DNA of 64,000 nucleotides from Polyangia bacterium (GCA_046351595.1 JAXLYE010000002.1:1304022-1368021), one strand, 5' to 3'. Shown: positions 11,063 through 62,817, counted from the stretch's first letter. Made by a program: numbers and translations. The notes: a model not told the origin generated them from the sequence alone.

Positions 11063-12397
11063 TCACAGCACCGCGTGCGCGGGCTGCCTGCGCGGCAGCG
11101 TCACCGTGAACGTCGCGCCCTTGTCCGGCACCGCGGCGGCGGTGATGGTGCCGCCGTGGCGCTCGGCGATGCGGCGGCAGATGGCCAGGCCGACGCCGCT
11201 GCCCTCGTACTCGCTGCGGCCGTGCAGGCGCTGGAACAGGCCGAAGATGCGCTCGGCGTAGCGGCCCTCGAAGCCGATGCCGTTGTCCGCGACCACGAGC
11301 TCGATGCGCTCGGTGCCGCTCGGGTCGGGCGGCAGCGGGTTGACGGTGATCCGGACGACGGGGGAGCGGCCGGGGTGGCGGAACTTCAGGGCGTTGCCGA
11401 TCAGGTTCTGCAAGAGCTGGCGCATCTGCGTGCGGTCGGCCTGCACGACGGGCAGCTCGCCGGCCTCGATGGTCGCGCCGACCTGCTCGATGCGCACCTC
11501 GAGATCGGACAGCACCTCGCGCAGGACCTCGCCGAGCGCCACCATCTTGAACGGCTGCCCGCGTGTCACGACCCGCGAGAAGGTCAAAAGGTCCTGGATC
11601 AGCGTCTGCATGCGCACCGCCGCGCTCTGCATGCGCATCAGGTAGTCCTTGGACTGATCGTCGAGGTGGGGGGTGCGGCTCTTCAGGCGCTCGCCGAACG
11701 CCTGGATCTTGCGCAGCGGCTCCTGCAGATCGTGCGAGGCGGCGAAGGCGAAGTCCTGCAGCTCGCGGTTGCTGCGCTCGAGCTGCACCGTGTACTGCGC
11801 CAAGAGCAGGTTGGCGCGCGACAGGTCCGCGGTGCGCTCCTGCACGCGCTGCTCGAGCAGGTCGTGGGCGCGGCGCAGCTCCTGCTCGGCGAGCTTGCGC
11901 TCGGTGATGTCGCGGATGATGCACAGGATCTGCTCGGGGCGGCTGTTGCGCACCGGGCCGAGCGCGACCTCGACCGCGAACTCGCTGCCGTCGGCGCGGC
12001 GGCCGTGTAGCTCGAGCGCCGAGCCCATGCGGCGGGCGCGCGGCGCCTGCGTATAGCCCTCTCGCAGGCCCACGTGCCGCTCGGCGTAGCGCGCCGGGAT
12101 CAGCGCCTCGACGGGCAGGCCGATCATCTGGCCGCTGCCGTAGCCGAATATCAGCTCGGCCTGCGGGTTGGCGCGCAGGATGCGGCCGTCGTGCGTGACC
12201 AGCAGCGTCGCGTCCGGGGCGTACTCGAACAGGCTGTCGGAGACGTCGCCCGGCTTGTCGCCCGGCTTGTCGCCCGGCTTGTCGCCCGGCTTGTCGCCCG
12301 ACTCATCGACAGACGCGTCTCGTGACTCGCGGTGCGGCTCGGCCGGTGGTGCGGGGTTCGCGGGGTCTTCGGGGGTCGTGTGCGGTTCGGGAGGCAT
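11063..12397 (-). CDS. PAS-domain sensor histidine kinase with no adjacent response regulator; N-terminal (GDKP)x4 repeat
   Basis: A PAS fold is followed by HisKA (ASHDLQEPLRKI) and HATPase_c (NLIGNALKFR...GSGVGLAICRRIAERHGG). It is the last gene downstream of the cbb3/ccoG block, with a 30-bp gap after the DsbD_2-like gene. Confidence 0.85.
   Translation of the reverse strand: MPPEPHTTPEDPANPAPPAEPHRESRDASVDESGDKPGDKPGDKPGDKPGDVSDSLFEYAPDATLLVTHDGRILRANPQAELIFGYGSGQMIGLPVEALIPARYAERHVGLREGYTQAPRARRMGSALELHGRRADGSEFAVEVALGPVRNSRPEQILCIIRDITERKLAEQELRRAHDLLEQRVQERTADLSRANLLLAQYTVQLERSNRELQDFAFAASHDLQEPLRKIQAFGERLKSRTPHLDDQSKDYLMRMQSAAVRMQTLIQDLLTFSRVVTRGQPFKMVALGEVLREVLSDLEVRIEQVGATIEAGELPVVQADRTQMRQLLQNLIGNALKFRHPGRSPVVRITVNPLPPDPSGTERIELVVADNGIGFEGRYAERIFGLFQRLHGRSEYEGSGVGLAICRRIAERHGGTITAAAVPDKGATFTVTLPRRQPAHAVL
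12245..12304. repeat. In-frame 12-bp tandem repeat x4-5 (gtcgcccggctt) encoding (GDKP)n in the PAS kinase
   Basis: Direct reading of the DNA and the translation. Confidence 0.85.
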
Positions 12398-12427
12398 GGG
12401 TTCCCTCGGCAGCAGGCGGCGCGGGGC

Positions 12428-13234
12428 TCAGAACAGCATCAGCAGCAGCGGGCGGCCGAGCACGGTCACGCCGATGTGCTGGTGCGCGATCAGACCGAGT
12501 CCGGCCGCGCCGCACAAGAGCAGCCACACGCCTGCGACGGCGGGCAGCACGCGCGCGAGCCGGGTGCGCAGGCCGCCCTGCGTGCGGAACAGCGCCAGGC
12601 GCGGCAGCGCGGTCACGGTAAGCAGCATCGGCGTCGTCATCGCGCACAGAAGCAGCATCACCAGCGCGCCGCGCAGCGCCGAGCCCGAGAGCGCGGCCAG
12701 CCCGAGCGCCCAGCCGACGAGCATGCAAGGCAACAGGCCCATCGCGGCGCCGAGCGCCAGCGGCCGCAGCGGGTGCGTGCTCTCGAGCAGCGGGCGCAAG
12801 AAGCCCTGGGCGCGCTCGACGCTGCGCAGCTGGAAGCTCTTGCCTTCGTCGGCGCTGCGGCGCAGGCGGACGAGCTCGGGCGCGGGCCGTGCCTGCTGCC
12901 CTCCGAGCTGCAGGCGCTGCAGGAGCGGTCGCAGCAGCGGCCACAGCGCCGCCACCCCGAGCGCGAGCGCGAGCAGCGAGCCGGCCGGCCGCAGGATCCG
13001 CGACAGCCCGGCGCCGAGCAGCCCGCACAGCGCGCCGAGCCAGGCGTAGGTCAGCGAGCGGCCGAGCTGGTACAGGAGCACCTGGCCCGCGCCGCGTAGG
13101 GCGCTGCGCCCGCTGCGCACGCCCGCGACGTCCAGCCCGACGAGCAGCGGTCCGCACATGCCGGCGCAGTGCGCGCTCACCCAGACCAGGCCGAGCCCGA
13201 GCAGCTGCGCGTAGGGGCTGGGCAGCGCGCTCAT
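12428..13234 (-). CDS. DsbD_2-type membrane protein, the kind usually annotated sulfite exporter TauE/SafE-like next to ccoG
   Basis: It is polytopic and hydrophobic, carries an HCAGMCGP motif in the first helix, and its ATG overlaps the ccoG stop (ATGA). Confidence 0.6.
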   Translation of the reverse strand: MSALPSPYAQLLGLGLVWVSAHCAGMCGPLLVGLDVAGVRSGRSALRGAGQVLLYQLGRSLTYAWLGALCGLLGAGLSRILRPAGSLLALALGVAALWPLLRPLLQRLQLGGQQARPAPELVRLRRSADEGKSFQLRSVERAQGFLRPLLESTHPLRPLALGAAMGLLPCMLVGWALGLAALSGSALRGALVMLLLCAMTTPMLLTVTALPRLALFRTQGGLRTRLARVLPAVAGVWLLLCGAAGLGLIAHQHIGVTVLGRPLLLMLF

Positions 13235-14667
13235 GGCGAGCGACCCGGTGCGGCAAACAGCAGCGGACCGGCAAAGGGGACCTCGAGCTCGCGCACCGCG
13301 CCGCTGCGCTCGTCCGTGATGCGCAGCGTCGCGTGACGGCCGGGGCGGAAGCCGCTCTTTTGCGCCGACAGCACGACCGTGATGGCGCGGCTCTCCAGCG
13401 GCGCCAGGCTGGCCTCGGGCTGCGGGATGAGGACCTGCAGCCCGGACGCATCGGCCGGCGGCTGCGACGCATTGGCCGGCGCGCTGATGCGCAGGGTCAC
13501 GGGCTCGGCGCGCTTGTTGATGACGTGCACGAGCACGTGGTTGCGCACGGTGTCGCCGTCGATCACGTAGGGCGCGCCGCGACCGCGCACGAGGTTGGCC
13601 TCGAACGGCTGGTAGCGCGCGAACGCGGTGGCGAGCGCCAGGAGGCCGAGCAGGCCGAGACCGGCGTAGGCGATCACGCGCGGGCGGATGAAGCGGCGCG
13701 GCTCGCCGTCGAGCGCGCGCTCGCTGTCATACCGGATGAGGCCCGGCTTGCGCCCGACCTTGAGCATGATCTCGTCGCAGGCGTCGATGCAGCCGGCGCA
13801 GCCGATGCACTCCATCTGCAGGCCGTTGCGGATGTCGATGTCGGTCGGGCACACCGCGACGCAGCGGCGGCAGTCGATGCAGTCGCCGGCGCCCGTCGCG
13901 CCGACCTTGCCGCGCGGCTCGCCGCGGCGCTTGTCGTAGCCGATGACGACGGTGTCGCGGTCCTGCATGGCCGACTGCAGGCGCCCGTACGGGCAGAGGA
14001 TCAGGCAGAACTGCTCGCGGAACCAGAAGAAGTTGAAGTAGAGGATCCCGGTCAGGCCGATGCCCCAAAGGAACGCGGTCCAGTTCGCGAGCGGGTTGTC
14101 CCGCATCATGCGCAACAGCTCGGGGATCGAGACGAAGTACGCCAAAAACAGGTGCGCGAGCACGAACGAGACGAGCAGGAACAGCGCGTGCTTCAGCACG
14201 CGGCGCGCCAGCTTGTTGAGCGTCCAGGGCGCACGCGCCAGCGCCGCGCGGGCCGTGGCCGGGCCCTCGATGAGGCGCTCGATGCGGCGGTAGATTCCCT
14301 CGAGCAGCACGGTCTGCGGGCACGCCCAGCCGCAAAAGATGCGGCCGAACAGCGCGGCCAGCACGATGAGCACGAAGCCGACGCCGCTGACCACGAAGAA
14401 CAGGTAGAAGAAGTCCTGCGCGTTGAAGACCTTGCCGAACAGGTAGAAGCGGCGCTCCAAGATGTTGATGAAGACGGCGGGGTGGCCGTTCACCGTGATC
14501 CAGGGCAGGGCCAGGTAGATCAAGAGCAGCAGCGCAAAGACACGCGGGCGCCAGCGGGTGAAGCGGCCCTGCACGTCGGCGGGGTAGATGTAGCGGCGCC
14601 CGCCGCGCTCGTCCAGGACGTGCAGCTTGTCAAGGCCGGGCGAGGAGCGGGTGCGCGACTGGGTCAT
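13231..14667 (-). CDS. ccoG: cbb3 oxidase accessory protein CcoG/FixG (polyferredoxin with a FixG_C Ig-like domain)
   Basis: FCGWACPQT and CIDCRRCVAVCP...CIGCAGCIDAC 4Fe-4S motifs are present, plus the C-terminal beta-domain. Confidence 0.9.
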   Translation of the reverse strand: MTQSRTRSSPGLDKLHVLDERGGRRYIYPADVQGRFTRWRPRVFALLLLIYLALPWITVNGHPAVFINILERRFYLFGKVFNAQDFFYLFFVVSGVGFVLIVLAALFGRIFCGWACPQTVLLEGIYRRIERLIEGPATARAALARAPWTLNKLARRVLKHALFLLVSFVLAHLFLAYFVSIPELLRMMRDNPLANWTAFLWGIGLTGILYFNFFWFREQFCLILCPYGRLQSAMQDRDTVVIGYDKRRGEPRGKVGATGAGDCIDCRRCVAVCPTDIDIRNGLQMECIGCAGCIDACDEIMLKVGRKPGLIRYDSERALDGEPRRFIRPRVIAYAGLGLLGLLALATAFARYQPFEANLVRGRGAPYVIDGDTVRNHVLVHVINKRAEPVTLRISAPANASQPPADASGLQVLIPQPEASLAPLESRAITVVLSAQKSGFRPGRHATLRITDERSGAVRELEVPFAGPLLFAAPGRSP

Positions 14668-14727
14668 GGGAGTCTCCGCGAGCTCGTTCTGGGCGGGCTC
14701 GTTCTGGGCGTTCTCAAGCGGGCGCGC

Positions 14728-15411
14728 TCAGGGCGCCACCTGCCCGGTCGCGCTCGTGCCCTGCGGCGCCTTTCCGGGGACGTTGGTGTCGCGGAGCGAG
14801 AGGACGTAGGCGACCGCCTCCTTGACCTTGGTCGCGCCGAGCACCGGCTTCCACGACGGCATGCCCTTGTCGAGGACGCCGGCGCTGACGCTGCCGTAGA
14901 TGTCGCGCGCCTTGCTGCCGTGGATCCAGTAGCCGTCGGTCAGGTTGGGGCCGACCACGCCCTGGCCGCGATCGCCGTGGCACGCGACGCAGTTCTGCTT
15001 GAACACCGCGGCGCCGCGCGCGACGGCCTCGGGATCACGGCCCAGGGCGGTGAGCTGCTCTTCGGTGACGCCCTTGCCCTGTGCCTCCAGCGCGGCCTCC
15101 AGGGCGTCCTGCTCTTCCTGGGCGCGGCGCAGCTCGTCGCGGAACGCGGCCATCGGCAGGAGGCCCGCGCCGAGCGTGTGGTAGTAGAACCAGTACACGA
15201 CCGAGAAGGCGATGGCGCCGTACAGCGTGAACAGCCACCAGCGCGGCAGCGGGTTGTCGAGCTCGCGGATGCCGTCGTAGTCGTGTCCCGTGTCGGGGGC
15301 CGTGTCCTGAACCCCGTCGTGGACCCTGTCGTGGACCCCGTCGTGGACCCTGTCGTGGACCCTGTCGTGGACCCTCTCTGGGCTCACGGTTTCCTGTGTC
15401 GTAGCGCTCAT
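14728..15411 (-). CDS. ccoP: cbb3-type cytochrome c oxidase subunit CcoP, monoheme variant with an N-terminal (RVHD)n repeat
   Basis: The family signature DGIRELDNPLPRWW and a transmembrane helix are followed by a single CVACHG heme site. No second CxxCH was found. Confidence 0.85.
   Translation of the reverse strand: MSATTQETVSPERVHDRVHDRVHDGVHDRVHDGVQDTAPDTGHDYDGIRELDNPLPRWWLFTLYGAIAFSVVYWFYYHTLGAGLLPMAAFRDELRRAQEEQDALEAALEAQGKGVTEEQLTALGRDPEAVARGAAVFKQNCVACHGDRGQGVVGPNLTDGYWIHGSKARDIYGSVSAGVLDKGMPSWKPVLGATKVKEAVAYVLSLRDTNVPGKAPQGTSATGQVAP
15304..15375. repeat. In-frame 12-bp tandem repeat x5-6 (gtcgtggaccct) encoding (D/G)RVHD repeats at the CcoP N-terminus
   Basis: Direct reading. Confidence 0.85.
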
Positions 15412-15632
15412 GGCGACTCCCTCCCTTCGCTCGGCGCGGCCGCCCTGCCCGCAGCCTGAGCAACCGCCGTGCCGTCGTCGCTGAGCGGCAGCCCGGCCAG
15501 CTCGGCGTAGGCCGCGCGCTGCGAGCCGCGCAGCGTGTACAGGACCGCAGCGACGAACGTGATCAGGAACGACAGCATCGCCACGATCGGGAGGATCAGG
15601 AGGCCGCGTCCGGAAAAGAACTCGTGGTACAT
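15408..15632 (-). CDS. ccoQ: Small single-TM cbb3 subunit CcoQ/FixQ-like
   Basis: It is 74 aa with one hydrophobic helix (LLILPIVAMLSFLITFVAAVLY), lies between ccoNO and ccoP, and its stop overlaps the ccoP start. Confidence 0.7.
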   Translation of the reverse strand: MYHEFFSGRGLLILPIVAMLSFLITFVAAVLYTLRGSQRAAYAELAGLPLSDDGTAVAQAAGRAAAPSEGRESP

Positions 15633-15660
15633 GGGAACGTCTCCAGTTGCCTGCTGGCCG

Positions 15661-15728
15661 GTTACTCTCTGGCCACTTCCTGTTACTGATTTGTTACTTC
15701 GTCGTTACCGCGGCGCCCGGCCGTTACT
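15661..15728. promoter_or_regulatory. Five direct GTTAC(T/C) repeats in the ccoNO-ccoQ intercistronic region (spacings 21, 11, 12, 18 bp)
   Basis: The pair TGTTActgattTGTTAc is 11 bp centre-to-centre, which resembles ArcA/OmpR-family direct-repeat boxes. Confidence 0.35.
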
Positions 15729-18063
15729 TCCTGGCCTCGGGCGCCGCTGCGGTCGTCGCCGCCGTCGCTGTCACCGCAGAGCCCGGGTTCTTGCCGAGGC
15801 GCTGCAGGTACGCGATGAGCGCGACCATCTCGCTGTCCCATGCAACCGGCGCGCCCTGGCTCGCGAGCTCACTGGCGATGCCCTTGGCCTGGGACTCCAG
15901 GTCGCTGTTCGCGCTCGACAGCTCCGCCGCCGAGTAGGGCACGCCGAGGGTGCGCATCGCGCTCATCTTCACCGTCGTGTCGCCGGTGTCGATCGTGCGC
16001 TGGAGCAGGAACGCGTACGGCGGCATGTTCGAGCCCACCGACGTGACCCGCGGATCGATCAGGTGCTGGTAGTGCCACAGGTGCGAGTACTTGCCGCCGA
16101 CGCGGTGCAGGTCCGGGCCGGTGCGCTTGGAGCCCCACTGGAACGGGTGGTCGTAGATGAACTCTCCCGCGGTGCTCGGCTCGCCGTAGCGCAGCTTCTC
16201 GCCCTGCAGCGGGCGCACCATCTGCGAGTGGCAGACGTAGCAGCCCTCGCGCACGTAGATGTCGCGGCCGTGCAGCTCGAGCGGGCGGTAGGGCGTCTGC
16301 ACCGGGCCGGTGCGCGGCACCGCGCGGTCGACGACCAGCGTCGGCAGGATCTCGGCGACACCGCCGACCAGCACCGCGATGAGCGCCAGCACCGAGAACA
16401 AGAGCGAGCGGCCCTCGAGCACGCGGTGCACGTCGATGCGGCCTCTGTCATCGCGCGGCACGCCGAACACGAACCACGCGGCGACCACCAGGATGACCAT
16501 GCCGGTGATCAGCAGCGTCGCGACCGGGATCTGATCGACCAGGAAGAAGGTGCCGAGGATCACGAAGGCCGCCACCGAGATCAGGATCGGCGTCGAGAAC
16601 ACCAGGCGCGTCCACGGGATCGTCGGGCGCGCCGGCTCGGGCTCGGGGTCGAGCACCTCGACCGTGGTGTCCACCGGCGTGCCGGCGGCGATGGTCTTGC
16701 CGAGGTTCCAGGCCATGAGCAGGAAGCCGACCAGGTACATCGTGCCGCCCACCGCGCGCGTCATGTACAGCGGCCGGATCGCCAGCAGCGTCTCGACGAA
16801 GCTCGGGTAAAGGAGCGCTCCCTCGGAGGTCGTGGCGCGCCACATCAGGCCCTGGGTGATGCCGCTGATCCACATCGAGATCGTGTAGAGCAGGATGCCG
16901 AACGTGCCGAGCCAGAAGTGGAAGTCGGCGGCGGCCTTGCTGTGCAGCGGGCGGTTCCACAGCCGCGGCACCAGGAAGTAGAACATGCCGGCGGCCATGA
17001 AGCCGTTCCAGCCGAGCGCCCCGGTGTGGACGTGGCCGATGATCCAGTCGGTGTAGTGGGCCAGGCCCGAGACGCTCTTGATCGAGAGCAGCGGGCCCTC
17101 GAACGTCGCCATGCCGTAGAACGTCACGCCGGCGATCAGGAACTTGAGGACCGGATCCGTGCGCAGCTTGCCCCAGGCGCCGCGCAGCGTCAGAAGTCCG
17201 TTGATCATGCCGCCCCACGACGGCGCCCACAGCATCAGCGAGAACAGCATGCCCATCGACTGCGCCCAGTCCGGGAGCGCGGTGTAGAGCAGGTGGTGCG
17301 GCCCGGCCCAGATGTACATGAAGATCAGGGCCCAGAAGTGGATGATGCTGAGCCGGTACGAGTACACCGGGCGGCCCGCGGCCTTGGGCAGGAAGTAGTA
17401 CATGATGCCGAGGATCGGGGTGGTCAGGAAGAAGGCGACCGCGTTGTGCCCGTACCACCACTGCACCAGCGCGTCCTGCACGCCGGCGAAGACCGAGTAG
17501 CTCTTGATGCCCTTGCCGATCGGCAGCGCCAGCGAGTTCACGACGTGCAGCACGGCCACGGTCAGGATGGTGGCGATGTAGAACCACAGCGCGACGAACA
17601 GGTGCTCTTCACGGCGGCGCTTCAGCGTTAAGAAAAAGTTGATGCCGAAGGTGATCCACACCAGCGCGATGGCGATGTCGATCGGCCACTCGAGCTCCGC
17701 GTACTCCTTCGACTGGGTGATGCCGAGCGGCAGGGTGATCGCGGCGGCGACGATGATGAGCTGCCAGCCCCAGAAGTGGACCGCGGACAAGAGGTCGCTG
17801 GCCATGCGCGCCTTGCACAGCCGCTGCGTCGAGTAGTAGATGCCGGCGAAGAGCATGTTGCCGACGAACGCGAAGATGACCGCGTTGGTGTGCAGCGGCC
17901 GCAGGCGCCCGAAGCTGAGCCAGGGCGCGAGGTTCAGCTGGTGGAAGGCGAGCTGGCAGGCGATGAACACGCCGACGAGCATGCCCACCGCGCCCCAGAA
18001 GACGGAGGCGAGCAGGAATCGTCTCACAGAGCGATCGTCATAGGTGATGGATACGGGCTTCAT
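15724..18063 (-). CDS. ccoNO: Fused cbb3-type cytochrome c oxidase subunits I and II (CcoN-CcoO)
   Basis: The N-terminal 12-TM heme-copper oxidase segment ([15 protein letters not shown]...) continues in one frame into a CcoO-like monoheme domain ([11 protein letters not shown]...[11 protein letters not shown]). Confidence 0.9.
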
Positions 18064-18221
18064 GGTCCTTCCTCTTGCATCGGGGGCTCCTCCTCCAGCG
18101 GGAGGAGCGAAAGTCGGTCGGAGTGCTCGTGCGTGCGCCGCAGGAACAGCGCGCCGAACAAGAGCGCGAACAGCAGCACGAGGATCAAGCTGACGAACAG
18201 CGTCAGGTAGATGGCGTTCAT
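18060..18221 (-). CDS. ccoS: cbb3 oxidase maturation protein CcoS/FixS (53 aa, single TM)
   Basis: [35 protein letters not shown] is the size and architecture of CcoS. Its stop overlaps the ccoNO start, and its ATG overlaps the ccoI stop (ATGA). Confidence 0.7.
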
Positions 18222-20737
18222 GCGGTCACCTCGGCGGGGGCTGGCAGCAAGCGCGGTGCCTGCCGGAGCGGCGCCTCGCGGGGCGCGGCCTGCGCCTCTG
18301 CGCTGCGGAACGAGCGCAGCGTCGCCAGCACGACCAGTAGGGAGCTCACCGGCATGAGCAGCGCGCAGCGCAGCGGCGTCATCATGCCGGCGAGCGCCAG
18401 CGCGACCACGGCGACGTTGTAGGCGCCGCTCAGGAGCAGGTTGCGGACGATGACGCGGCGCAAGAAGCGCGCGGTCGCGAGCGACTCGGCGATGGGGCCG
18501 AGGCCGTGGCCCAGGAAGTAGAAGTCGGCGCGCGCGGGCAGGGCCGGGCGCTCGGTCGCCGGCGTGCCCGCGCAGAGCGCGGCATGGAAGGCGAGGGCGT
18601 CGTTGATGCCGTCGCCGATCATCATCGTGTCGGGCGAATCGGGCGCGCCGATGCGCTGCACCGCGGCCGCCTTGTCCTCGGGGCGCAGGCCGCCGAGCGC
18701 CTGCTCCGCGGGGACGCCGAGCCGAGTCGCCAGCGCGCTCACCCGCTCGGGCTGATCGCCCGAGAGCAGCCACACCTTGTAGCCGGCCGCGGCGAGCGCA
18801 TCGACCTGGTCGCGCGCGTCCGGGCGCAGCTCCTCGCGGAAGCGGAAGCAGGCGCGGAGCGTGCCCGCGATGCTGAACAAAAGCGCGCCGCCGCTCCCGG
18901 GAGGAGTCGGGGACGCGGTCGTGGCGTCTGCGCCCACGAACTCGGCGGTGCCGAGGCGCACGGCCTGGCCCGCGAGCTCGGCCACGAGGCCGCGGCCCGG
19001 CTCCTCGAGCACCACGGTCGCGGTGTCGAGCACCGGCGGCGCCGCCATCATGCGCACGAGCGCGTCGAGCAGGGCGCGGCTGCGCGGGTGGTTGGAGCGC
19101 GCCACGAGCTGGTACAGGGCGCCGCGCTCGGTCACGCCAAGCGCACGGAGCGCCTCGGGGTTCTCGAGCGCCGGCTCCAGCGCGGTCAGCGTGCCGGTCT
19201 TGTCGAACAGCACCTTGCGCACGCGCAGCGCGCGGTCGAAAAACGTCACGTCGCGGACGAACAGGCCGAGGCGGCGCAGCCGGCCCTGCGCCAGCTCGTA
19301 GGCCAGCGGCGTCGCCACGCCGAGCGCGCACGGGCACGTCACCATGAGCAGCGCCGCGGTCACCTCGAGCGCGCGGGCGCCGTCACGCGGCAGCCACAGC
19401 CCGAGCCCGAGCGCGGCCAGCGCCAGCACGCCGAGCACGTAGTAGCGGCTCAGGTGGTGCCAGAAGTCGCGCCGCGGCTCGCTCGTGCTCGGGTCGCGGC
19501 GCGCGCGCAAAAGCTCGCACAGCGCCGAGGCGCGGAAGTCCTCGGTGGCGCGCAGCCGCACGGCGCGGCCGCCGGCGCTCGCCGCCAGGTTGTGGGCACC
19601 GGCGGGGGCGCGATCGCCGCGCGTGAACAGCCGCGGCTCGGCCTCGCCGCTGATCCACTCCAGCGACAGGAGCGCGCGCTCCTCCAGGCACTCGCACGCG
19701 GTCGGCAGGAGCTCGCCGGGCGCGCACAGGAGCTCTTGGCCCGCGCGCAGCTCGCTCGCCGGCAGCAGGCGCATGCGGCCGTCGCCGTCCACCGCGCGGA
19801 CCACGAAACCGGCGATGCCCTCGTCGCTGAGCAGGACGCGGCGGTTGTGGCTGGCGATGCGCCGCTGGATCAGGCGCCCCATCAGCATGAGCGCGATGAA
19901 GGTCGTCAGCGTGTCAAAGTACGCGGACTGGCCGCCGCGGCTCACAAAGGCCCAGGCGCTGCCCGCGTAGGCCAGCAGCATGCCGAGCGCGATCGGCACG
20001 TCCATGTGCAGGATGCGCCGCCGCAGCGCACCGATCGCCGAGCGGACGAAGACGCTGCCGCCGAGCAGCAGCGCGGCGGTGGCGAGCGCGAAGCTGCCGA
20101 TCGAGAAGATGCGGTACAGGCCCGAGTCCGCGCCGCCGCTGCCGCCACCGTCTTCCAGGCCGAAGTAGATGGCGAACGAAAAGATCATGCTGTTCATGGC
20201 CAGCGCCGCGCACAGGCCGAAGCGCAGCAAGAGGTCATCGCCCTCGTCATCGGGGCGCTTGCGCGGCGGCCCGGCGCGGTAGCCGAACGGCTGCAGCTCG
20301 TCGAGGAAGCGGCCGAGGATGCGGCTGCCCTCGCCGGACTGCCAGAAGACCTCGGCGCGGCCGAGCGCGGGGTTGATGGTGATCGCGCGCGCGCCCGGGA
20401 TGCGGCGGAACAGCCGCTCGATCAGCCACACGCACGCCGCGCACTGCAGGCCCTGCAGATCCAGGGTGAGGCGCGCGGTGCCGCTCTGCGCGCTCTGCTC
20501 CGCTGCCTCGATCAGCGGCGCCAGCCAGGTGCGGCTGTCTTCACCGCGCGCGGAGCCCGGGACCGCCAGCCGCTGCCCGTCGAGCAGATCGTAGAAGCGG
20601 GAGAGGCCGGCCTGCTCGATCAGCTCGTGCGCGGCGCGGCAGCCGGTGCAGCAGTAGGGCGCAGTCGCCGCACCTTTTGCGATCGGGCTGTGACAGTGCG
20701 GACACGTGCTGCGCATCAAAAAACTTCCTTCCAACAA
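18218..20737 (-). CDS. ccoI: Copper-translocating P1B-type ATPase CcoI/FixI
   Basis: An N-terminal Cys-rich metal-binding region is followed by the TM CPC motif (TCPCALGV), DKTGTLT and GDGINDA. Confidence 0.9.
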
Positions 20738-21221: not shown

Positions 21222-21481
21222 GGCGTGAAGCTCCTCCGCGCCGCCTCTTGCGCATGCGCCATGCCAGCGCGCGCTCGCCGCTCCTCGACGAGCTCGTAGC
21301 GGACGCGTGCCGGAACCGTCACTCCCGCGTAACGATAGGGTGCGCGCGGTAACGCTCCGGGGCGGGAACGTGCCGCGCTCTCTCGACGGGGCGGCGTGGC
21401 CTGGCTCTTGCTTTTCTCAACAGCCATGGCCGCCGCCGTGCGGTAACGCCGGACCCGGAGCCATGCGGGCCCACAGCGCCC

Positions 21482-21517
21482 CTGCCGTGCGCAGGCCCCT
21501 GCCGTGCGCAGGCCCCT
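21482..21517. repeat. 17-19 bp tandem repeat x2 plus a partial copy (gccgtgcgcaggcccct) immediately upstream of the usp gene
   Basis: Direct reading, 20 bp before the usp RBS. The motif GCGGTAACGC also occurs twice in the same divergent region (about 21349 and 21440). Confidence 0.75.
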
Positions 21518-21537
21518 CCCGTGCTTAGGAAGGTTAG

Positions 21538-32232: not shown

Positions 32233-35903
<3,671 letters not shown>

Positions 35904-35904
<1 letters not shown>

Positions 35905-35940
35905 GACATCGTTCTAAAATTAGAACATCGTCCTAAATCC
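35904..35940. terminator. AT-rich imperfect palindrome (AGGACatcgTTCTAAaaTTAGAAcatcGTCCT) at the convergent junction of the kinase remnant and malQ
   Basis: Seen directly, between the stop codons at 35904 and 35977. It may be a bidirectional terminator or a protein-binding site. Confidence 0.35.
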
Positions 35941-55936: not shown

Positions 55937-55951
55937 GGGTAATGCGCTCAG

Positions 55952-55983
55952 AGTCCTTTATGACCGCGCAGAGTAGGACTCTA
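55952..55983. promoter_or_regulatory. Hairpin (AGAGTCCT-N16-AGGACTCT) in the PP2C 5' leader; the 3' arm overlaps the AAAGGA Shine-Dalgarno
   Basis: Seen directly. Confidence 0.35.
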
Positions 55984-56219
55984 TCAGTCCCGGGGTTAAA
56001 GTCAACGGGGCCTTTTGTCCCCATCGGTAGCAGCGACACCGTCGACAAAATCAGCGACAGCGCACCGAAAAATGGGTGCCGGCGGGCGCGGCGCGCGGCG
56101 GCAGGTGGTGGCCGGCAAGGGCCAGAAACAGGCTCGGCCGCCCGCCGCGAGCTCTGCGAGCGATTGGGTATGAGCCCGGCTTGCTTCGGCGGCGCGGGCA
56201 GCCGTAGCATCGCGCGACC

Positions 56220-57725
56220 ATGAGCGAGACGTCGAAACCCGGACCAGGCGACGGCGCGGGGGCGCCGATTCAGGCGGCGCGGGCCGTCCCGAGCGAGACC
56301 GCGCGGGCGGCGCGGCTGCGCGGCGAGATCGTCACCATCGGCGATGAGCTGAACCGCGGCGAGATCATCGACAGCAACGCGGCGTGGCTCGGCGAGCAGC
56401 TGACCGAGCTCGGCATCCACGTCCGCTACCGGCAGGGCGTAAACGACCAGCCCGATGACATCGCGGCGGCGCTGCGGCTGGCGGCGGCGCGCTCGGACGT
56501 GGTGCTGGTCTCGGGCGGGCTCGGGCCGACCTCGGATGACCTGACGGTCGACGTCGCGGCGCAGCTGTGCGGCGTCGAGCCGGTCGTCGATCCCGAGCAC
56601 GAGCAGCGCATGCGCGACCGCTTCACCGAGCGCAAGCTGCCCTTCAGCCCGAACAACCTGCGGCAGGTGCGCGTGCCCCAAGGGGCCACGGTGCTGCCCA
56701 ATCATCACGGTCTGGCCCCGGGATTCCTGATCGGTGCGGGCCTGATCGGTGCGGGCCTGACCGGTGCGGGCCTGACCGGTGCGGGCCTGACCGGTGCGGG
56801 CCTGACCGGTGCCGACTTGCTCGGTGCGGCCGGCCCGATCGGCGCAGGCCGCGGGCCCGGGGCCGCGCGCCTGTTCTTCATGCCGGGCGTGCCGCGCGAG
56901 CAGCGCCCGATGTTCCTGGCCGAGATCGCGCCGCGCCTGCGCGCGCAGGGCGGCCAGCACGTCGCCTCGCGCCGCCGCGTCTACCGCGTGATCGGGCTGG
57001 GGGAGTCGCAGGTCGATCACCGGCTCCAGGGCCTGGCCGAGCTCGTGCCCGCCGGCGCGGGCGGCGTCACCGTCCACTACCGCCTCGCCTTCCCCGAGGT
57101 GCTGGTGACGCTCGTCGCCGAGGGGACCGCGGGCGGCGACGGAGATTCGGCGCAGGCGGTGCTCGATCGGCTGCACCCCGAGGTGCTGCGGCGCCTCGGC
57201 CGCGCGGTCTACAGCGAGACGGCCGATGAGCTGCAGGTGGTGCTCGGCCGCGAGCTGCACCAGCGCGGCGCCACGCTGGTCACCGCCGAGTCCTGCACCG
57301 GCGGCCTGATCGGTCAGATCCTGACCTCGACGCGCGGCTCGTCGGCGTACTACCAGGGCGGCGTGATCGCCTATGCCAACGAGGTGAAGGTCGCGCTGCT
57401 CGGCGTCCGGCCCGAGACGATCGCGGCCCACGGCGCGGTCAGCGAGGCCTGCGTGCGCGAGATGGCCGAGGGCGCGCGGCGGCGGCTTTCGGCGACCTAC
57501 GCGATCTCGGTCTCGGGCATCGCCGGGCCCGACGGCGGCACGCCCGACAAGCCGGTCGGCACGGTCCACCTCGCGGCGGCGGGCCCCGACGAGACGCTGC
57601 ACCACAAGCTGCTGTGGCCGGGCGACCGCGAGCAGATCCGCCGCATCGCCGCGGTTGCGGCGCTGAACCTCCTTCACAAGCTGCTCAACCCCGAGCGCCG
57701 CGCCGACACCGGGCTGCGCATCTGA
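56220..57725 (+). CDS. cinA: CinA-family protein (MoCF-binding domain + nicotinamide-nucleotide amidohydrolase PncC domain) with an inserted (GAGLT)n repeat
   Basis: The N-domain has IVTIGDELNRGEIIDSNAAWL...VLVSGGLGPTSDDLT. The C-domain has LVTAESCTGGLIGQILTS...YQGGVIAYANEVK. Confidence 0.85.
   Translation: MSETSKPGPGDGAGAPIQAARAVPSETARAARLRGEIVTIGDELNRGEIIDSNAAWLGEQLTELGIHVRYRQGVNDQPDDIAAALRLAAARSDVVLVSGGLGPTSDDLTVDVAAQLCGVEPVVDPEHEQRMRDRFTERKLPFSPNNLRQVRVPQGATVLPNHHGLAPGFLIGAGLIGAGLTGAGLTGAGLTGAGLTGADLLGAAGPIGAGRGPGAARLFFMPGVPREQRPMFLAEIAPRLRAQGGQHVASRRRVYRVIGLGESQVDHRLQGLAELVPAGAGGVTVHYRLAFPEVLVTLVAEGTAGGDGDSAQAVLDRLHPEVLRRLGRAVYSETADELQVVLGRELHQRGATLVTAESCTGGLIGQILTSTRGSSAYYQGGVIAYANEVKVALLGVRPETIAAHGAVSEACVREMAEGARRRLSATYAISVSGIAGPDGGTPDKPVGTVHLAAAGPDETLHHKLLWPGDREQIRRIAAVAALNLLHKLLNPERRADTGLRI
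56734..56823. repeat. In-frame 15-bp tandem repeat x5 plus degenerate copies (ggtgcgggcctgacc) encoding GAGL(I/T) repeats in the CinA inter-domain loop
   Basis: Direct reading. Confidence 0.9.
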
Positions 57726-57753
57726 CTGCGGCGCGCGGACGCCCACGCGGGGT

Positions 57754-57795
57754 TCGCCGGAGCAGTGACGACGGAGCAGTGACGACGGAACAGCG
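57754..57795. repeat. 14-bp tandem repeat x3 (ggagcagtgacgac) in the cinA-downstream intergenic region
   Basis: Direct reading. Confidence 0.8.
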
Positions 57796-57899
57796 ACGAC
57801 CGATCAGCGGGCCGGCGGTCGCGCCGCGCCGCCCGCACCGGCCGCGGCCGACGGGTCTGCAGCTGAGACGTTCTGCTCCAGCGTGGTAGACTTCACCCC

Positions 57900-58556
57900 G
57901 TGAAGCCCAACGAGTTCGAGCAGGCGGTGCTTGACCTGGCGATGACGACGAGCGTGCCGCTCACGCGCGCGAACATCCTGTTCTACAGCGGCGCGGGCGC
58001 CCGTCAGGCCGACAAGTGGCTCGACGACATGCTGCGCAGCGGCCTGCTCGAGTTCGACAGCGACGACAGCGGCGAGATCATCTACACCGTCTGCGGCGCC
58101 AAGCGACCGCCGGCCGGGCCGACGCAGCTCACCCGCTGCAGCGCCTGCCGTCGCGCCACCGGCGTCGGCGTGCGCTGCGGGCGCTGCGGCCAGCTCCTCG
58201 ACCCGCAGCTGCGCTCGATCCGGCAGGACATCGAGCGCGCCGGCACCGCGCTCGATCTGGTGCGCGGCAAGGGCGGCAGCCTGCTGCCGCAGCGCGAGGG
58301 CGACAAGAACCTGCTGGTGGCCGGCGCGCTCGGCCTGCTCGGGCCCTTCGGCTGGTTCTACGCGGCGCCGCTGCAGGAGGCGGCCGCGGCCTCGGCGGGG
58401 TTCCTGCTGGCCTACTGGCTGCTGCCGACGATCCTCTTGGTGCCGCTGGTGTCGCTGCTGCTGCCGGTGTCGGCGGTGATCGGCGCGCTGTACGCCTACA
58501 AGCACAACCGCGTCGGCGGCCGCTCCGGCCTGTTCACCGAAGACCGGGGGAGCTGA
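57900..58556 (+). CDS. Membrane protein with an N-terminal helical (wHTH-like) module, a C4 zinc ribbon and two C-terminal TM helices
   Basis: CSACRRATGVGVRCGRCG (CxxC-N11-CxxC) is followed by two hydrophobic helices. The start codon is uncertain: GTG at 57900 or ATG at 57942. Its stop abuts the GTG of the next gene. Confidence 0.55.
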   Translation: MKPNEFEQAVLDLAMTTSVPLTRANILFYSGAGARQADKWLDDMLRSGLLEFDSDDSGEIIYTVCGAKRPPAGPTQLTRCSACRRATGVGVRCGRCGQLLDPQLRSIRQDIERAGTALDLVRGKGGSLLPQREGDKNLLVAGALGLLGPFGWFYAAPLQEAAAASAGFLLAYWLLPTILLVPLVSLLLPVSAVIGALYAYKHNRVGGRSGLFTEDRGS

Positions 58557-59576
58557 GTGGAGCAGGCGCTCGCCAGCGGGGTCGTGCTGTCGTCGGGGCT
58601 CGGGGTGCGGCCGCTGGCCGGTGCGGCGCTCGAGCGTGAGGCGGCGGCGGCGCTGCTCACCGCGGCCCTGCCGCACGACCGCATCGACGTCGTCCTCGAC
58701 GAGAAGCTGTTCGGCGGCAACGGCCGGCGGCCGAGCCAGACCCTGGGCGCCTTCTCGGGTGGCGGCGAGCTGCTCGGCGTCCTGGCCCAGGCCGGGCGCT
58801 TCATCAAGCTCCTGGCGGTGCTGCCCTCGGCGCAGCGGCGCGGCGTCGGCACGGCGCTGCTGCGAGCGGCGCGCGCGTTTGTCGCGGCTCCCGAGGCCGG
58901 CGACGGCGGCCGACCGCGACTGCGCATCGGCGATTGCGCCGGCAACTACCTCTCGCCCGGCGTCGACGAGCGCTACGCCGCGGCACGGGACTTCTTCACG
59001 GCGCGCGGCTTCGTCGAGGTCGGCCGCAACCTCAACCTGCGCGCCGCGCTCGCCGACCACCCGCTCGTCACCGCCGAGCGCGCCGAGGCCCTCGAGCACC
59101 GCGCCCGCGACGCCGGGTACCGCCTGCTCCGCGCCGGCGCCGCCGAGGCCCCGGCGCTGCTCGAGCTCGTCGAGCGCGAGTTCTCGTGGTGGTGGGCCTA
59201 CGAGCTCCGCCGCGCCCTCGGCCCGACGCTGCCGCTCGGTGGCCGGTGGGACGAGGGCGAGCCGACCGCGCACACACCCGAGCTGCCCGAGGGCTCGGGC
59301 GTGCACGTCGCGCTCGATGCCGCGGGCGCGCCCGTCGCCTTCGCGGCGCACGACGGCAACAACCGCGGCCTCGGCTGGTTCGGCCCCATGGGCACGCTGC
59401 CCGCGCACCGCGGTCACGGGCTCGGCGAGGCGCTGCTGCTGCGCTGCCTGCTCGACGTGCGCGACCGCGCTGATGGCGGCGTCATCGCCTGGGTCGGTCC
59501 CGAGGCCTTCTACGCGCGCGCTGCTGGCACGGTGCCGGACCGCCGCTTCACCGTCTACGAGGAGGCCGCAAGCTAG
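58557..59576 (+). CDS. Tandem-GNAT N-acetyltransferase
   Basis: Two acetyl-CoA-binding motifs are present (LLAVLPSAQRRGVGTALL and FGPMGTLPAHRGHGLGEALL). Its GTG start immediately follows the upstream stop. Confidence 0.75.
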   Translation: MEQALASGVVLSSGLGVRPLAGAALEREAAAALLTAALPHDRIDVVLDEKLFGGNGRRPSQTLGAFSGGGELLGVLAQAGRFIKLLAVLPSAQRRGVGTALLRAARAFVAAPEAGDGGRPRLRIGDCAGNYLSPGVDERYAAARDFFTARGFVEVGRNLNLRAALADHPLVTAERAEALEHRARDAGYRLLRAGAAEAPALLELVEREFSWWWAYELRRALGPTLPLGGRWDEGEPTAHTPELPEGSGVHVALDAAGAPVAFAAHDGNNRGLGWFGPMGTLPAHRGHGLGEALLLRCLLDVRDRADGGVIAWVGPEAFYARAAGTVPDRRFTVYEEAAS

Positions 59577-60620
59577 ATGCTGCAGGGGATGTTCGGCACG
59601 CCGCTGCGCGGCATGGTGCTGTGCGCCGGGATGGGCACCCGTCTCGGCACGCTTTCCGACGAGCTGCCCAAGCCGCTCTTGCCGGTCTGCAACCACCCGC
59701 TGGTGACCTACGCGCTCGCGCTCCTGCGCGGCCACGGCGTCACCGAGATCGGCATCAACCTGCACCACCTCGGTGAGCTCATCACCGAGGCGCTGGGCGA
59801 CGGCCAGGACTACGGCGTCGAGATCCAGTACTCGACCGAGCCGACGCTGCTCGGCACCGGCGGCGGCCTGCGCAAGCTCTACGACTTCCTGACCCACGAG
59901 GGGCGCGAGCCGTGCGTGGTCGTCAACGGCAAGCTCCTCGTCGAGGTCGACCTGGAGTCGGTGCTGGCCCTGCACCGTGTCACCGGCGCCGTCGCCACCA
60001 TGGTGCTGCGCGCGACGCCGGACGCCGAGGCCTGGGGCGCGGTCGAGGTCGACGCCGACGGCCGCGTCCACAGCATCCTCGGGCAGCGGGCCCCGATCGG
60101 CACGCCGCGCGGCGGCCTCACCCGCTGCATGTTCACCGGCGTCCACATCGTCGAGCCGCAGCTGCTCCTGCGCCTGCCCGAGGACCAGGAGTCGTGCGTC
60201 GTGCGCCAGGGCTACATCCCGGCGCTGCGCGAGGGCGAGGTGATCAGCGCCTACGTCCTGTCGGGCTACTTCCACGAGCACAGCACCCTCGAGCGCTACC
60301 TGCAGGGCAACCTGAACGCGCTGCGCGGCCACGCCCAGCTCAGCCACCTGCCTGGTCCGCTCGTCGGCATCAGCGCGCGCGCCCAGATCTCGCCGCGCGC
60401 GATCGTCCACGCGCCGGTGTGCATCGGCGCCGGGGTCGTGGTCCAGGACGGCGCCACCGTCGGCCCCGACGTCGTGCTCGGCGAGGGCGCGCGGGTCGAG
60501 CGCGGCGCCCGCATCAGCCGCTCGGTGGTCTTCGCCGGCGCCCAGGTGCGCGGCACCGTGCACAGCTCGATCGTGACGCGCAACGCCACGTATCCCATCA
60601 CGCTTCCCGGCGAGCCTTAG
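59577..60620 (+). CDS. Sugar-phosphate nucleotidyltransferase with a C-terminal left-handed beta-helix (mannose-1-phosphate guanylyltransferase-like NDP-sugar pyrophosphorylase)
   Basis: The G-rich NTP_transferase loop is LCAGMGTRLGTLSDELPKPLLPV. C-terminal hexapeptide repeats are present. Its ATG follows the GNAT stop by one nucleotide. Confidence 0.8.
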   Translation: MLQGMFGTPLRGMVLCAGMGTRLGTLSDELPKPLLPVCNHPLVTYALALLRGHGVTEIGINLHHLGELITEALGDGQDYGVEIQYSTEPTLLGTGGGLRKLYDFLTHEGREPCVVVNGKLLVEVDLESVLALHRVTGAVATMVLRATPDAEAWGAVEVDADGRVHSILGQRAPIGTPRGGLTRCMFTGVHIVEPQLLLRLPEDQESCVVRQGYIPALREGEVISAYVLSGYFHEHSTLERYLQGNLNALRGHAQLSHLPGPLVGISARAQISPRAIVHAPVCIGAGVVVQDGATVGPDVVLGEGARVERGARISRSVVFAGAQVRGTVHSSIVTRNATYPITLPGEP

Positions 60621-60644
60621 TCATAAGCTTGTGTTCATGATTGA

Positions 60645-60656
60645 ATATCAACATAA
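60645..60656. promoter_or_regulatory. AT-rich motif ATATCAACATAA (upstream copy) flanking the 60678-61190 gene
   Basis: It is a direct repeat of the motif at 61208-61219 with 11 of 12 positions identical. Both lie in AT islands in a 72% GC genome. Confidence 0.4.
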
Positions 60657-60677
60657 ACAGCGTCCAGCTGCCCAAGG

Positions 60678-61190
60678 GTGCTCATGAGCGAAAAGCTACA
60701 AGACCGCGCGCTGCAGCGACCGCAGCCGGCCTCCGCCTCGCCCGAAACCGCGACCCAGACCTCGCTCGAGGCTTCGCCCCAGACGGCGCTCACCGTCGAC
60801 CAGCGGACCGAGGCCGAGCTGGCCAAGATCGACGAGGAGATGGACCGCATCATGGCGCGGCCGGGGCAGCAGCAGGCGCTGATGAACCCGCCCGGCCAGG
60901 CGCTACAGCCGGCCGCCGGGCGCAGCCTGACACCGTCGGTGTCGGCGCCGGCCGACGCGGGCGGGCTGCAGCAGATGGTGATGAACTTCATCGTCCCGGG
61001 CGGCGGCTCGCTGATGCGCGGCGCGATCGGCACCGGCGCGCTGCAGCTCGGCATGGCGCTGGCTTCGGTGCCCGTGCTCTTCTTCGTCGCCTGGTGGCTG
61101 GGCGTGCTGATGTTCGTCACCGCCTGGGTGTGGTCGGCGTACAGCGGCGTCAGGTACTTCAATAACTCGACCACGAAGTCCTGGCGCTAA
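60678..61190 (+). CDS. Hypothetical Pro/Gln/Ala-rich protein with a C-terminal TM segment (tail-anchor-like)
   Basis: The codon bias is coherent. A C-terminal hydrophobic helix VPVLFFVAWWLGVLMFVTAWVW is present. No family was recognised. Confidence 0.5.
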   Translation: MLMSEKLQDRALQRPQPASASPETATQTSLEASPQTALTVDQRTEAELAKIDEEMDRIMARPGQQQALMNPPGQALQPAAGRSLTPSVSAPADAGGLQQMVMNFIVPGGGSLMRGAIGTGALQLGMALASVPVLFFVAWWLGVLMFVTAWVWSAYSGVRYFNNSTTKSWR

Positions 61191-61207
61191 CTATTCGCTT
61201 ATATTAT

Positions 61208-61219
61208 ATATCAATATAA
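61208..61219. promoter_or_regulatory. AT-rich motif ATATCAATATAA (downstream copy) within the imperfect palindrome cttatattatatatcaatataag
   Basis: Direct reading. It sits between the hypothetical gene and the ferredoxin gene. Confidence 0.4.
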
Positions 61220-61268
61220 GCTCGCTCTCCCGCCGCCCCGCATTCCAACACAAAACCCGAGGACTGCC

Positions 61269-61652
61269 ATGATCCCGTACGAGAAGCACGTGCTGATCTG
61301 CACCAACCGCCGTGATCCGAACAACCCCAAGGGCTCCTGCGCGCACAGCGGCTCCGAGGCCCTCTGCGAGGTGTTCAAGAAGGAGCTGCACAGCCGCGGG
61401 CTCAAGGGGCGGATGCGGGCGAACGCCTCGGGCTGCCTCGACCAGTGCGCGCACGGCCCGACGGTGGTGGTCTACCCCGATGCGGTCTGGTACCAGGTCA
61501 AGACCGCCGAGGATGCGCGCGAGATCGTCGAGCAGCACCTGTGCGGAGGCCAGCCCGTCGAGCGGCTGCGCATCGACCAGAAGGACGGCGGCACGGACGG
61601 CGCCAACGACAGCGGCGGCAAGGACAAGGCCGGCGACAAGCCGTCGGTCTGA
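61269..61652 (+). CDS. Thioredoxin-like [2Fe-2S] ferredoxin
   Basis: The Cys pattern is C12-C24...C56-x3-C60 (ICTNRRD...GSCAHSG...GCLDQCAHGP). Confidence 0.75.
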   Translation: MIPYEKHVLICTNRRDPNNPKGSCAHSGSEALCEVFKKELHSRGLKGRMRANASGCLDQCAHGPTVVVYPDAVWYQVKTAEDAREIVEQHLCGGQPVERLRIDQKDGGTDGANDSGGKDKAGDKPSV

Positions 61653-61656
61653 GCCT

Positions 61657-62727
61657 CTAGCGCGGCAGGCGCTGCGAGTACGCGAGGCCGAGGTATGCGG
61701 TGTGCCGCTGGTACGACGGGCCGGCGTCGCGGGGCAGGCTGAAGAAGCCGGTGTAGCGGGCGCTCACCGCGAAGCCGCGGCCGAGCGGGCGCTCCAGGTC
61801 GAGCAGCGCCAGCGAGCGGTTGTCATCGTCGACGTTGCCGGCGGGCACGAACAGCCCGGCGGTGCCGGACAAGAGGTTCAGCTGCCCCTTGGCCGTCACG
61901 TACAGGTCGCCGGGCAGGCGGAAGGCCAGCTTGAGCAGCGGCAGGTGGCGCTGGTAGCTCTCCTGGGCCTTGCTGCTGAAGTTGAGCTGCGCGGTGTAGC
62001 CGAGCTGCAGCAGCACCGGCCCCTGCCACGTCGCGGCGCCGCCGAGCTGCAGGAACAGGTCGGTGCGCGCGCCCATGTAGCCGCGGTACTCGAAGCGGGC
62101 GTGGCTCGTCAGGTCGAAGTCGTGGCCGAGCTCGGGGTCGCCGGCGTGCAGGTGCGCCCCGAAGCGGCCGGTCACTGACGGCGCCAGGAAGCTGAACCCG
62201 GAGTCGGGCTTGTACTGGAAGAGCTGGCCGCCGACGTCGAGGCCGCCCTCGATGCGGTGCCGCTCGCCCAGCGGTCGCGCGGCGAGCAGGCGCAGTGCCG
62301 CCTGCAGCGAGCGCAGGTCGCGGCTCTCCTCGGGCGCGGCCGGCGCCTGGAACGCGTCGTAGTAGTCGATCGCGCCGGTCAGCCGCACCCGCTCGAGCTG
62401 CGCGCCGTGCTCGTAGCCGAGCTGCACGACGCCGACGTTCTGGTCCTGCAGCGTCGGCAGGAGGTAGATCTTGCCGCCGGCGCTGAGCTGCACGCGCAGC
62501 CGCTGCCGCGGACCGGCGTAGGCAAGCGAGCCGCTGGCCAGCGCGCGCACGAGCGGCCCGGCGCGCGGCTGCAGGGTCGGCGGTGTCGTCGGCGGCGTCG
62601 TCGGCGGCTCGACCGCGACGCGGCTGGCGTTGCTGTCGTACTCGGCCCCGACGTCGGCGGTGACCGTGCCGCGCAGCGCCGCGGGCTGCAGCGCAGCGAA
62701 GACGAGCAGGCCGGCCCAGGCAGACAT
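61657..62727 (-). CDS. Putative outer-membrane beta-barrel protein
   Basis: It has a signal peptide MSAWAGLLVFAALQPAALRG, alternating beta-strand-like segments and a C-terminal aromatic-rich end. The in-frame 5' extension upstream is an (LRQR)n translation of a non-coding repeat, so the start is set at 62727. Confidence 0.55.
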   Translation of the reverse strand: MSAWAGLLVFAALQPAALRGTVTADVGAEYDSNASRVAVEPPTTPPTTPPTLQPRAGPLVRALASGSLAYAGPRQRLRVQLSAGGKIYLLPTLQDQNVGVVQLGYEHGAQLERVRLTGAIDYYDAFQAPAAPEESRDLRSLQAALRLLAARPLGERHRIEGGLDVGGQLFQYKPDSGFSFLAPSVTGRFGAHLHAGDPELGHDFDLTSHARFEYRGYMGARTDLFLQLGGAATWQGPVLLQLGYTAQLNFSSKAQESYQRHLPLLKLAFRLPGDLYVTAKGQLNLLSGTAGLFVPAGNVDDDNRSLALLDLERPLGRGFAVSARYTGFFSLPRDAGPSYQRHTAYLGLAYSQRLPR

Positions 62728-62766
62728 CGCGGCGCAGGATACCGCAAGCCCGCGCTGCCTCAGCCG

Positions 62767-62817
62767 TAGTCTCTGCCGCAGTCTCAGCCGCAGTCTCTGC
62801 CGTAGTCTCTGCCGTAG
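62767..62817. repeat. 12-bp tandem repeat x4 (yagtctcwgccg) in the divergent promoter region
   Basis: Direct reading. Confidence 0.8.

Follow-up and report, generated by a model that had tools for sequence, protein, structure and literature searches.

What accounts for the many short tandem repeats in a 64,000-bp stretch of a Polyangia bacterium genome (GCA_046351595.1 JAXLYE010000002.1:1304022-1368021), and why do several of them lie in frame inside conserved proteins? A first-pass annotation of this stretch, hereafter the window, had listed nine arrays with units of 12-21 bp, four of them within genes (a PAS kinase, the respiratory subunit CcoP, an NtrC-like protein and CinA), and had read them as consistent with selection for hypervariable segments. 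Our results point instead, with a probability that we put at roughly 0.78, to a narrow lineage of Polyangia (Myxococcota) with a high rate of tandem duplication and slippage, on which purifying selection acts as a filter. The arrays are recent slippage-type duplications that persist only where they are harmless; genome instability of this sort is already known, and it does not amount to a new system.

We scanned the window with Tandem Repeats Finder (TRF) and collapsed overlapping rows before counting arrays. All nine listed arrays were recovered with coordinates shifted by a few bases at most (2-8 copies of 12-21 bp units at 83-100% identity; Table 1). For the array in CcoP, TRF finds 8.0 copies where six had been listed. 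In total, the window holds 28 non-overlapping arrays at a TRF score of at least 50, 13 at a score of at least 70 and 5 at a score of at least 100. As chance models we used Markov chains of order 1, 3 and 5 together with a triplet shuffle within 3-kb blocks (40 simulations each, 160 in total); the means over the four models were 4-6, 0.2-0.5 and 0-0.02 arrays at the same three thresholds. One explanation would be that such repeats are low-complexity sequence produced by chance from the 72% GC content of the window and a strong codon bias, with no special process at work. Composition alone does yield about 4-6 arrays at a score of at least 50, which probably explains several weak two-copy arrays (70-85% identity) in genes rich in Ala, Arg and Gly, but the maximum at a score of at least 70 was three arrays across the 160 simulations, real DNA with a GC content of at least 65% has 3.8-7 times fewer, and composition does not produce perfect arrays of 4-6 copies. 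Composition alone is refuted for the strong arrays, and as a general account of the repeats we find it scarcely credible.

Since real genomes always lie above their shuffles, we added an empirical background. It combined 80 loci of GTDB species representatives, each surrounding a cinA homologue, with 79 loci from metagenomes that surround a conserved PP2C gene; its GC-matched subset comprised the loci with at least 65% GC (697 kb). This subset predicts 3.4 arrays at a score of at least 70, compared with the 13 found. The window exceeded it 2.5-fold at a score of at least 50, 3.8-fold at a score of at least 70 and 7-fold for young arrays, defined as those with at least 89% identity and a TRF score of at least 70 (Poisson P ~2e-5 to 6e-5 for each of the three enrichments). 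The window-wide excess of minisatellites that had been claimed is therefore borne out, both above shuffles and above GC-matched real DNA.

Because the window was taken from a metagenome-assembled genome (MAG), and repeats are a known cause of assembly error, spurious tandem copies introduced during contig assembly or polishing had to be weighed. A Logan contig (L163, from run SRR26348422) is 100% identical to window positions 57281-64000 (6,720 bp) with no gaps. This independent assembly reproduces the arrays at 57758, 62576 and 62759, and an artefact is refuted for these three. The check covers only that segment, and the four main coding arrays lie outside it. Arrays of the same type occur in relatives from other samples and assemblers, and reading frames stay intact across the arrays, both of which argue against an artefact in the remaining arrays, where it is unlikely; for the repeats as a whole we consider it extremely improbable.

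How widely is the excess shared? Three close relatives represented by contigs from other samples (L001, L002 and L083; proteins 87-96% identical, aligned blocks 85-94% identical in nucleotides) were as dense in arrays as the window, with 4.4 per 10 kb at a score of at least 50. Relatives at 75-80% CcoP identity (L165 and L167-L169; GC 68-70%) displayed an ordinary repeat density. The excess is therefore a trait of a narrow lineage and not a simple GC effect.

While the density is shared with the close relatives, the arrays themselves are not: wherever a site could be compared with L001, L002 or L083, we observed turnover, and the arrays thus differ between close relatives, in line with the first-pass annotation. 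The CcoP proteins of L001 and L002 are wholly without the array at 15280, which was also absent from all of the 24 closest homologues inspected, whose N-terminal tails vary in length; among 956 CcoP homologues (most of 188-215 aa) that of the window is unusually long. The PAS kinase orthologue of L001 (87% identical) has no GDKP array and carries a 9-bp array of its own (TER x 3) in the ATPase domain. At the CinA site, L083 (89% nucleotide identity) has an unrepeated insert of ~80 nt without the 15-bp array, and more distant CinA orthologues do not have the insert at all, their alignments to the window stopping at ~56726 and restarting at ~56871. The 14-bp array at 57758 is absent from L083. 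Conversely, the C-terminus of the fused oxidase protein CcoNO bears a 12-bp x 5.7 array in L001 and none in the window or in L002. In the spacer between ccoP and ccoG, orthologous positions genuinely differ in copy number, with two copies of a 15-bp unit in the window, three in L002 and about one in L001. Imperfect short repeats are often already present at the orthologous sites of relatives, such as GPETGPDTG in the CcoP of L002 and GCGACGGCGACGGCGAC at the C-terminus of its CcoNO.

A similar picture emerged from spacers between divergent genes. In the spacer between the Usp and CBS-domain genes, L165 has a perfect 10-bp x 4.3 array (4079-4121) that is unrelated to that of the window, and L168 has none. 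The spacer between the PP2C gene and cinA contains arrays of its own, likewise unrelated, in L003 (9799-9869) and in L010 (9763-9816 and 9906-9951). The units in the divergent-promoter spacers of L003, L010 and L165 measure 10-12 bp. Arrays appear to be born repeatedly in spacers of this type.

By combining codon-position GC with Pfam domains and the gene calls on relatives we obtained a gene map, according to which 8.8% of the window is non-coding. The unit length was divisible by three in all 18 coding arrays but in only 6 of the 10 non-coding ones (Fisher P=0.01), so the statement that coding units are always multiples of three was confirmed over a larger set, and a frame rule of this kind indicates a purifying filter at work. 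The small non-coding fraction harbors 10 of the 28 arrays (36%; binomial P=8e-5), a density per base about 6-fold higher than in genes, which is what mutational input followed by a purifying filter predicts. The repeat density (13 arrays against 0.2-0.5 at a score of at least 70) did not match the random expectation for this composition; a match in density and frame distribution was the outcome that the first-pass annotation had named as speaking against it.

One array required a decision on the gene start. In the gene at 61657-62727 the signal peptide starts at 62727, and the corresponding position is where the calls for this gene on L163 and L164 begin; with the true start at 62727, the array at 62759 is therefore non-coding and lies 30-90 bp upstream, in the promoter or 5' untranslated region. 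A mechanical open reading frame (ORF), 61657-62877, runs through this array as (LRQR)n, and its extension between 62727 and 62877 is probably not real, the repeats having inflated the ORF.

The position of the four main coding arrays within their proteins is congruent with the same filter. Pfam identified three of the hosts as a PAS/HisKA/HATPase kinase, a CcoP with FixP_N and one cytochrome c domain, and CinA; the fourth is a sigma-54-type activator whose receiver is matched only weakly. In the PAS kinase (gene 11063-12397) the array occupies the N-terminal tail, with the PAS domain starting at residue 55 in the Pfam match. In CcoP (gene 14728-15411) it also lies in the N-terminal tail, directly before the conserved PDTGHDYDG motif, and is older and partly decayed. 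The insert of CinA (gene 56220-57725) falls in a turn of the MoCF-binding domain, where it takes the place of five residues of PDB 6mr3 in the alignment. In the NtrC-like protein (gene ~53117-54928), alignment with PDB 4l4u showed that an insert of 72 residues (68-139) replaces two residues in the beta3-alpha3 loop of the receiver, immediately after the phospho-acceptor Asp. The location of the coding arrays in loops or termini was thus upheld, and array structure, frames and domain placement together support slippage-type, in-frame arrays at tolerated places.

The NtrC-like protein deserves separate attention. Compared with 4l4u, it has RSERGA in place of GAFTGA, and the Asp-Glu of Walker B is changed to Arg-Thr. 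No homologue was found at the syntenic site of L083 (89% identical), where 1.4 kb of unrelated, weakly coding DNA follows the PP2C gene, and the search for a syntenic orthologue in the relatives returned only 27-28% identical AAA+ matches in L004, L007 and L009. Because GAFTGA and Walker B are lost and L083 has no syntenic counterpart, this protein is probably under weak constraint; judged from its sequence, the activator looks degenerate.

Could the arrays nonetheless be kept by selection, rapid copy-number change in signalling proteins or promoters being retained as adaptive variation? Precedents would be the contingency loci of Haemophilus, Neisseria and Campylobacter, in which units of 1-7 bp shift the reading frame or the promoter spacing of surface or restriction-modification genes. 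The window resembles them in having slippage-prone repeats, some of them upstream of genes: the non-coding arrays at 21478, 57758 and 62759 all lie in spacers of this position, and the same spacers bear independent arrays in relatives (Usp-CBS in L165, PP2C-cinA in L003 and L010). Moreover, signalling proteins host two of the four main coding arrays, one of them adjoining the phospho-acceptor Asp of a receiver, and the longest arrays are coding. However, units of 12-21 bp that keep the frame in 18 of 18 coding arrays make on/off switching impossible, and the hosts are housekeeping or regulatory, including a core respiratory subunit (CcoP) and CinA and no surface, antigen or restriction genes; only a weak PPTT array falls in a putative secreted protein. 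Four genes are too few to show an enrichment in signalling, and the NtrC-like host, with GAFTGA and Walker B gone and nothing at the L083 syntenic site, suggests weak constraint rather than a tuned function. The absence of the arrays from 87-96% identical orthologues and from hundreds of homologues means that none has been maintained over time, and the density per base is several times greater outside genes. The proposed selection for hypervariable segments was consequently not supported by in-frame units, hosts of which two in four are housekeeping, positions that are not conserved and a roughly 6-fold non-coding density. We regard this explanation as unlikely: it is not supported for the coding and other arrays, and possible for those in promoter regions.

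A more local function is less probable still. Here, the non-coding arrays would be sets of regulator binding sites and the His/Asp-rich repeat of CcoP a metal-binding tail. The CcoP unit, xVHD, does resemble the conserved motif TGHD beside it and contains many residues that serve as metal ligands, and a 12-bp period recurs among the non-coding arrays of the window and its relatives. Against this, no array is conserved in the close relatives, the units have no shared motif, Rfam gave no match, and the CcoP homologues (956, most of 188-215 aa) do without a tail array. We consider it very unlikely that individual arrays have functions of this type.

We favor, then, a lineage in which tandem duplications of 10-21 bp would arise and change copy number unusually often, in genes and spacers alike. 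The duplications probably stem from slippage during replication or from template switching between short direct repeats that lie close together; once two perfect copies are present, slipped-strand mispairing would alter their number. Within genes, purifying selection would purge those arrays that disturb reading frame or fold, and the survivors would be in frame, in N-terminal tails, turns and loops, and encode peptides rich in Gly, Pro, Asp, Lys, His and Ser. In non-coding DNA any unit length would survive, which would leave arrays several-fold denser. Point mutations would eventually halt slippage, and the arrays would decay into fixed low-complexity inserts by which loops and tails lengthen. 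The coding arrays form a decay series of this kind, with TRF identities of 100%, 98%, 97%, 83% and 75%; degenerate copies flank the CinA array, and many arrays terminate in partial copies. The decayed array at 53461, which sits beside the fresh one in the same loop insert of the NtrC-like protein, looks like an earlier round of the process that gave rise to the array at 53327. We infer the slippage mechanism from these features, and likewise that something in the lineage makes it prone to it.

Several points weigh against this reading. The four longest arrays, including the three that are perfect over at least 50 nt, are all coding, and although the numbers are tiny, this is not predicted by a pure purging model. 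The sample is small, a 64-kb window with ~20 kb (20.5 kb) of DNA from close relatives. The copy-number comparison spans lineages at 87-96% protein identity rather than strains of one species. In addition, the background loci are mostly short-read MAG contigs, in which repeats are perhaps under-represented, yet the close relatives are likewise short-read contigs and are rich in repeats, which offsets this concern.

If the density holds genome-wide, the lineage would offer a natural bacterial case of the rapid birth, growth and decay of in-frame repeats. The contrast with sister lineages at 75-80% protein identity, which do not have the trait, could lead to the difference in replication or repair by which slippage rates are set when genomes are GC-rich, and may show how the loops and disordered tails of conserved proteins lengthen. 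On the practical side, arrays of this type can cause errors in gene calling, divide clusters of orthologues and interrupt assemblies of short reads.

Among known systems, the arrays are closest to bacterial variable-number tandem repeat (VNTR) loci, the minisatellites used for multiple-locus VNTR analysis (MLVA) typing in Burkholderia pseudomallei, Mycobacterium tuberculosis, Yersinia pestis and Xanthomonas. VNTR loci consist of head-to-tail units of ~9-30 bp at many unrelated loci, include in-frame coding arrays and have slipped-strand mispairing as their accepted mechanism. Like them, the arrays of the window are head-to-tail copies of high identity, with units of 12-21 bp where ~7 bp or more would qualify, and their copy number or presence differs at orthologous loci (the ccoP-ccoG spacer; CcoP, the PAS kinase, CinA and 57758), in this case between lineages. 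They differ in belonging to an uncultivated lineage of Polyangia. Searches of an incomplete body of literature for tandem repeats or minisatellites in Sorangium or other Myxococcota returned no report of such an excess, and a review from 2021 on the genomics of myxobacteria makes no mention of one; a 2026 repeat database preprint covers only repeats of at least 500 bp.

A second comparison is with Borgs, extrachromosomal elements with pervasive perfect tandem repeats in both genes and spacers, which make up 0.62% of the genome (Schoelmerich et al., 2023; PMC9879509). In Borgs the units within ORFs are all divisible by three and many intergenic units are not; the repeats have independent origins, are absent from homologues, are flanked by partial copies and encode disordered low-complexity peptides (PMC9879509). 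The window shares the occurrence in both genes and spacers, the frame rule (18 of 18 against 6 of 10), the independent origin, the absence from orthologues, the partial copies at the flanks and the low-complexity peptides. By the Borg definition (perfect, at least 50 nt and at least three units), three regions qualified, that is 0.31% of the window on just three regions, compared with 0.016% in 1.26 Mb of GTDB loci and no region in the 20.5 kb of close relatives. On the other hand, Borg units are A-rich, the element is archaeal and extrachromosomal, and its repeat-bearing proteins are mainly extracellular (PMC9879509); most units of the window are GC-rich, its host is a 1.6-Mb bacterial contig with a cbb3 oxidase and other core genes, and its repeat-bearing proteins are cytoplasmic or core. 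A bolder view would be that the lineage gained a repeat-generating process or lost a safeguard, approaching Borg strength, that it thereby adds new disordered segments to core and signalling proteins, even beside a receiver phospho-acceptor, and that some of its promoter-spacer arrays are used adaptively; we hold this to be unlikely.

In-frame duplication within a folded enzyme has a precedent in another GC-rich bacterium. According to a report on the PenA beta-lactamase of Burkholderia (PMC4169377), in-frame tandem duplications arise de novo in its omega loop and their copy number is reversible, a situation similar to the loop arrays of the window. Those duplications are reported to have been selected under antibiotic pressure and to alter the substrate spectrum, while no selective agent or functional change is known for the arrays described here.

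Table 1. Tandem arrays of the window, in window coordinates. The first nine had been listed by the first-pass annotation; the last four had not.
Feature	Position	Strand	Unit, copies and identity	Basis
PAS kinase array, (GDKP)n	12245-12300	-	12 bp x 4.7, 100%	TRF, translation
CcoP array, (R/G-VHD)n	15280-15375	-	12 bp x 8.0, 83%	TRF, translation
NtrC-like protein array, (GEAQHRS)5	53327-53429	+	21 bp x 4.9, 97%	TRF, translation
CinA array, (GAGLT)n	56726-56812, degenerate copies to 56829	+	15 bp x 5.8, 98%	TRF, translation
Non-coding duplication in a 759-bp gap	6797-6837		21 bp x 2.0, 100%	TRF
Non-coding array, unit TCTGATTGGGAA	9794-9831		12 bp x 3.2, 100%	TRF
Spacer array between divergent CBS-domain and Usp genes	21478-21524		17 bp x 2.8, 96%	TRF
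Spacer array downstream of cinA	57758-57809		14 bp x 3.1-3.7, 89-93%	TRF
Non-coding array upstream of gene 61657-62727	62759-62817		12 bp x 4.9, 89%	TRF
(PPTT)n array after the signal peptide of a hypothetical secreted protein (gene 61657-62727)	62576-62608	-	12 bp x 2.8, in frame; weak	TRF
Decayed array in the loop insert of the NtrC-like protein, peptide ADVRLRAAEVQLRGVDAQLRG	53461-53530	+	21 bp x 3.3, 75%	TRF
ccoP-ccoG spacer array	14678-14710		15 bp x 2.2	TRF
Duplication in ccoG	13445-13486		21 bp x 2	TRF

Most of the units are GC-rich, as in GTCGCCCGGCTT and CCTGACCGGTGCGGG. When the TRF units of the window and its relatives were compared, no common motif was seen, which favors a generic process over a mobile element. 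A REP/MIRU-like or mobile-element family was considered and rejected, as the units all differ and none recurs across loci. Scanning the window in full against Rfam (gathering thresholds) matched no family, and the non-coding arrays are therefore not part of a described RNA. Around the duplication at 6797 there was no codon-position GC periodicity.

The array at 9794 lies in an unusually long non-coding region of ~900 bp (9437-10333) that has an AT-rich patch near 9960-10010 and showed neither codon periodicity nor an Rfam match. The same array is 265 bp from a synteny breakpoint with L001, in which positions 7484-7605 join DNA homologous to window position 10096 directly to that homologous to 32145, which means that a rearrangement or indel spanning ~22 kb separates the two lineages. 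An AT-rich repeat of 19 bp x 1.9 (TTAGAACATCGTCCTAAAA) with near-palindromic halves occupies 35901-35937, in a 72-bp gap between two convergent genes. A set of 99-bp repeats (2494-2984; 4.2 copies, 75% identity) corresponds to the thrombospondin type-3 repeats of a 717-aa OmpA-family protein, and we set it apart from the minisatellites as domain repeats of an older and different class.

A tRNA scan with ARAGORN gave one doubtful match only, a 97-nt tRNA-Arg(CCG) on the minus strand (20492-20588); it falls inside an 839-aa ORF (18218-20737) that synteny with L165 identifies as the P-type ATPase, and it is probably a false positive. The oxidase genes showed two peculiarities: CcoN and CcoO are fused into a single protein of 779 aa with COX1 and FixO domains (15724-18063), and CcoP has a single cytochrome c domain and ~200 aa throughout the clade, compared with the usual dihaem form of ~300 aa. 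The largest array among the fetched loci belonged to a more distant metagenomic relative, L091, with 12.7 copies of a 21-bp unit at 93% identity over 266 bp (16495-16760).

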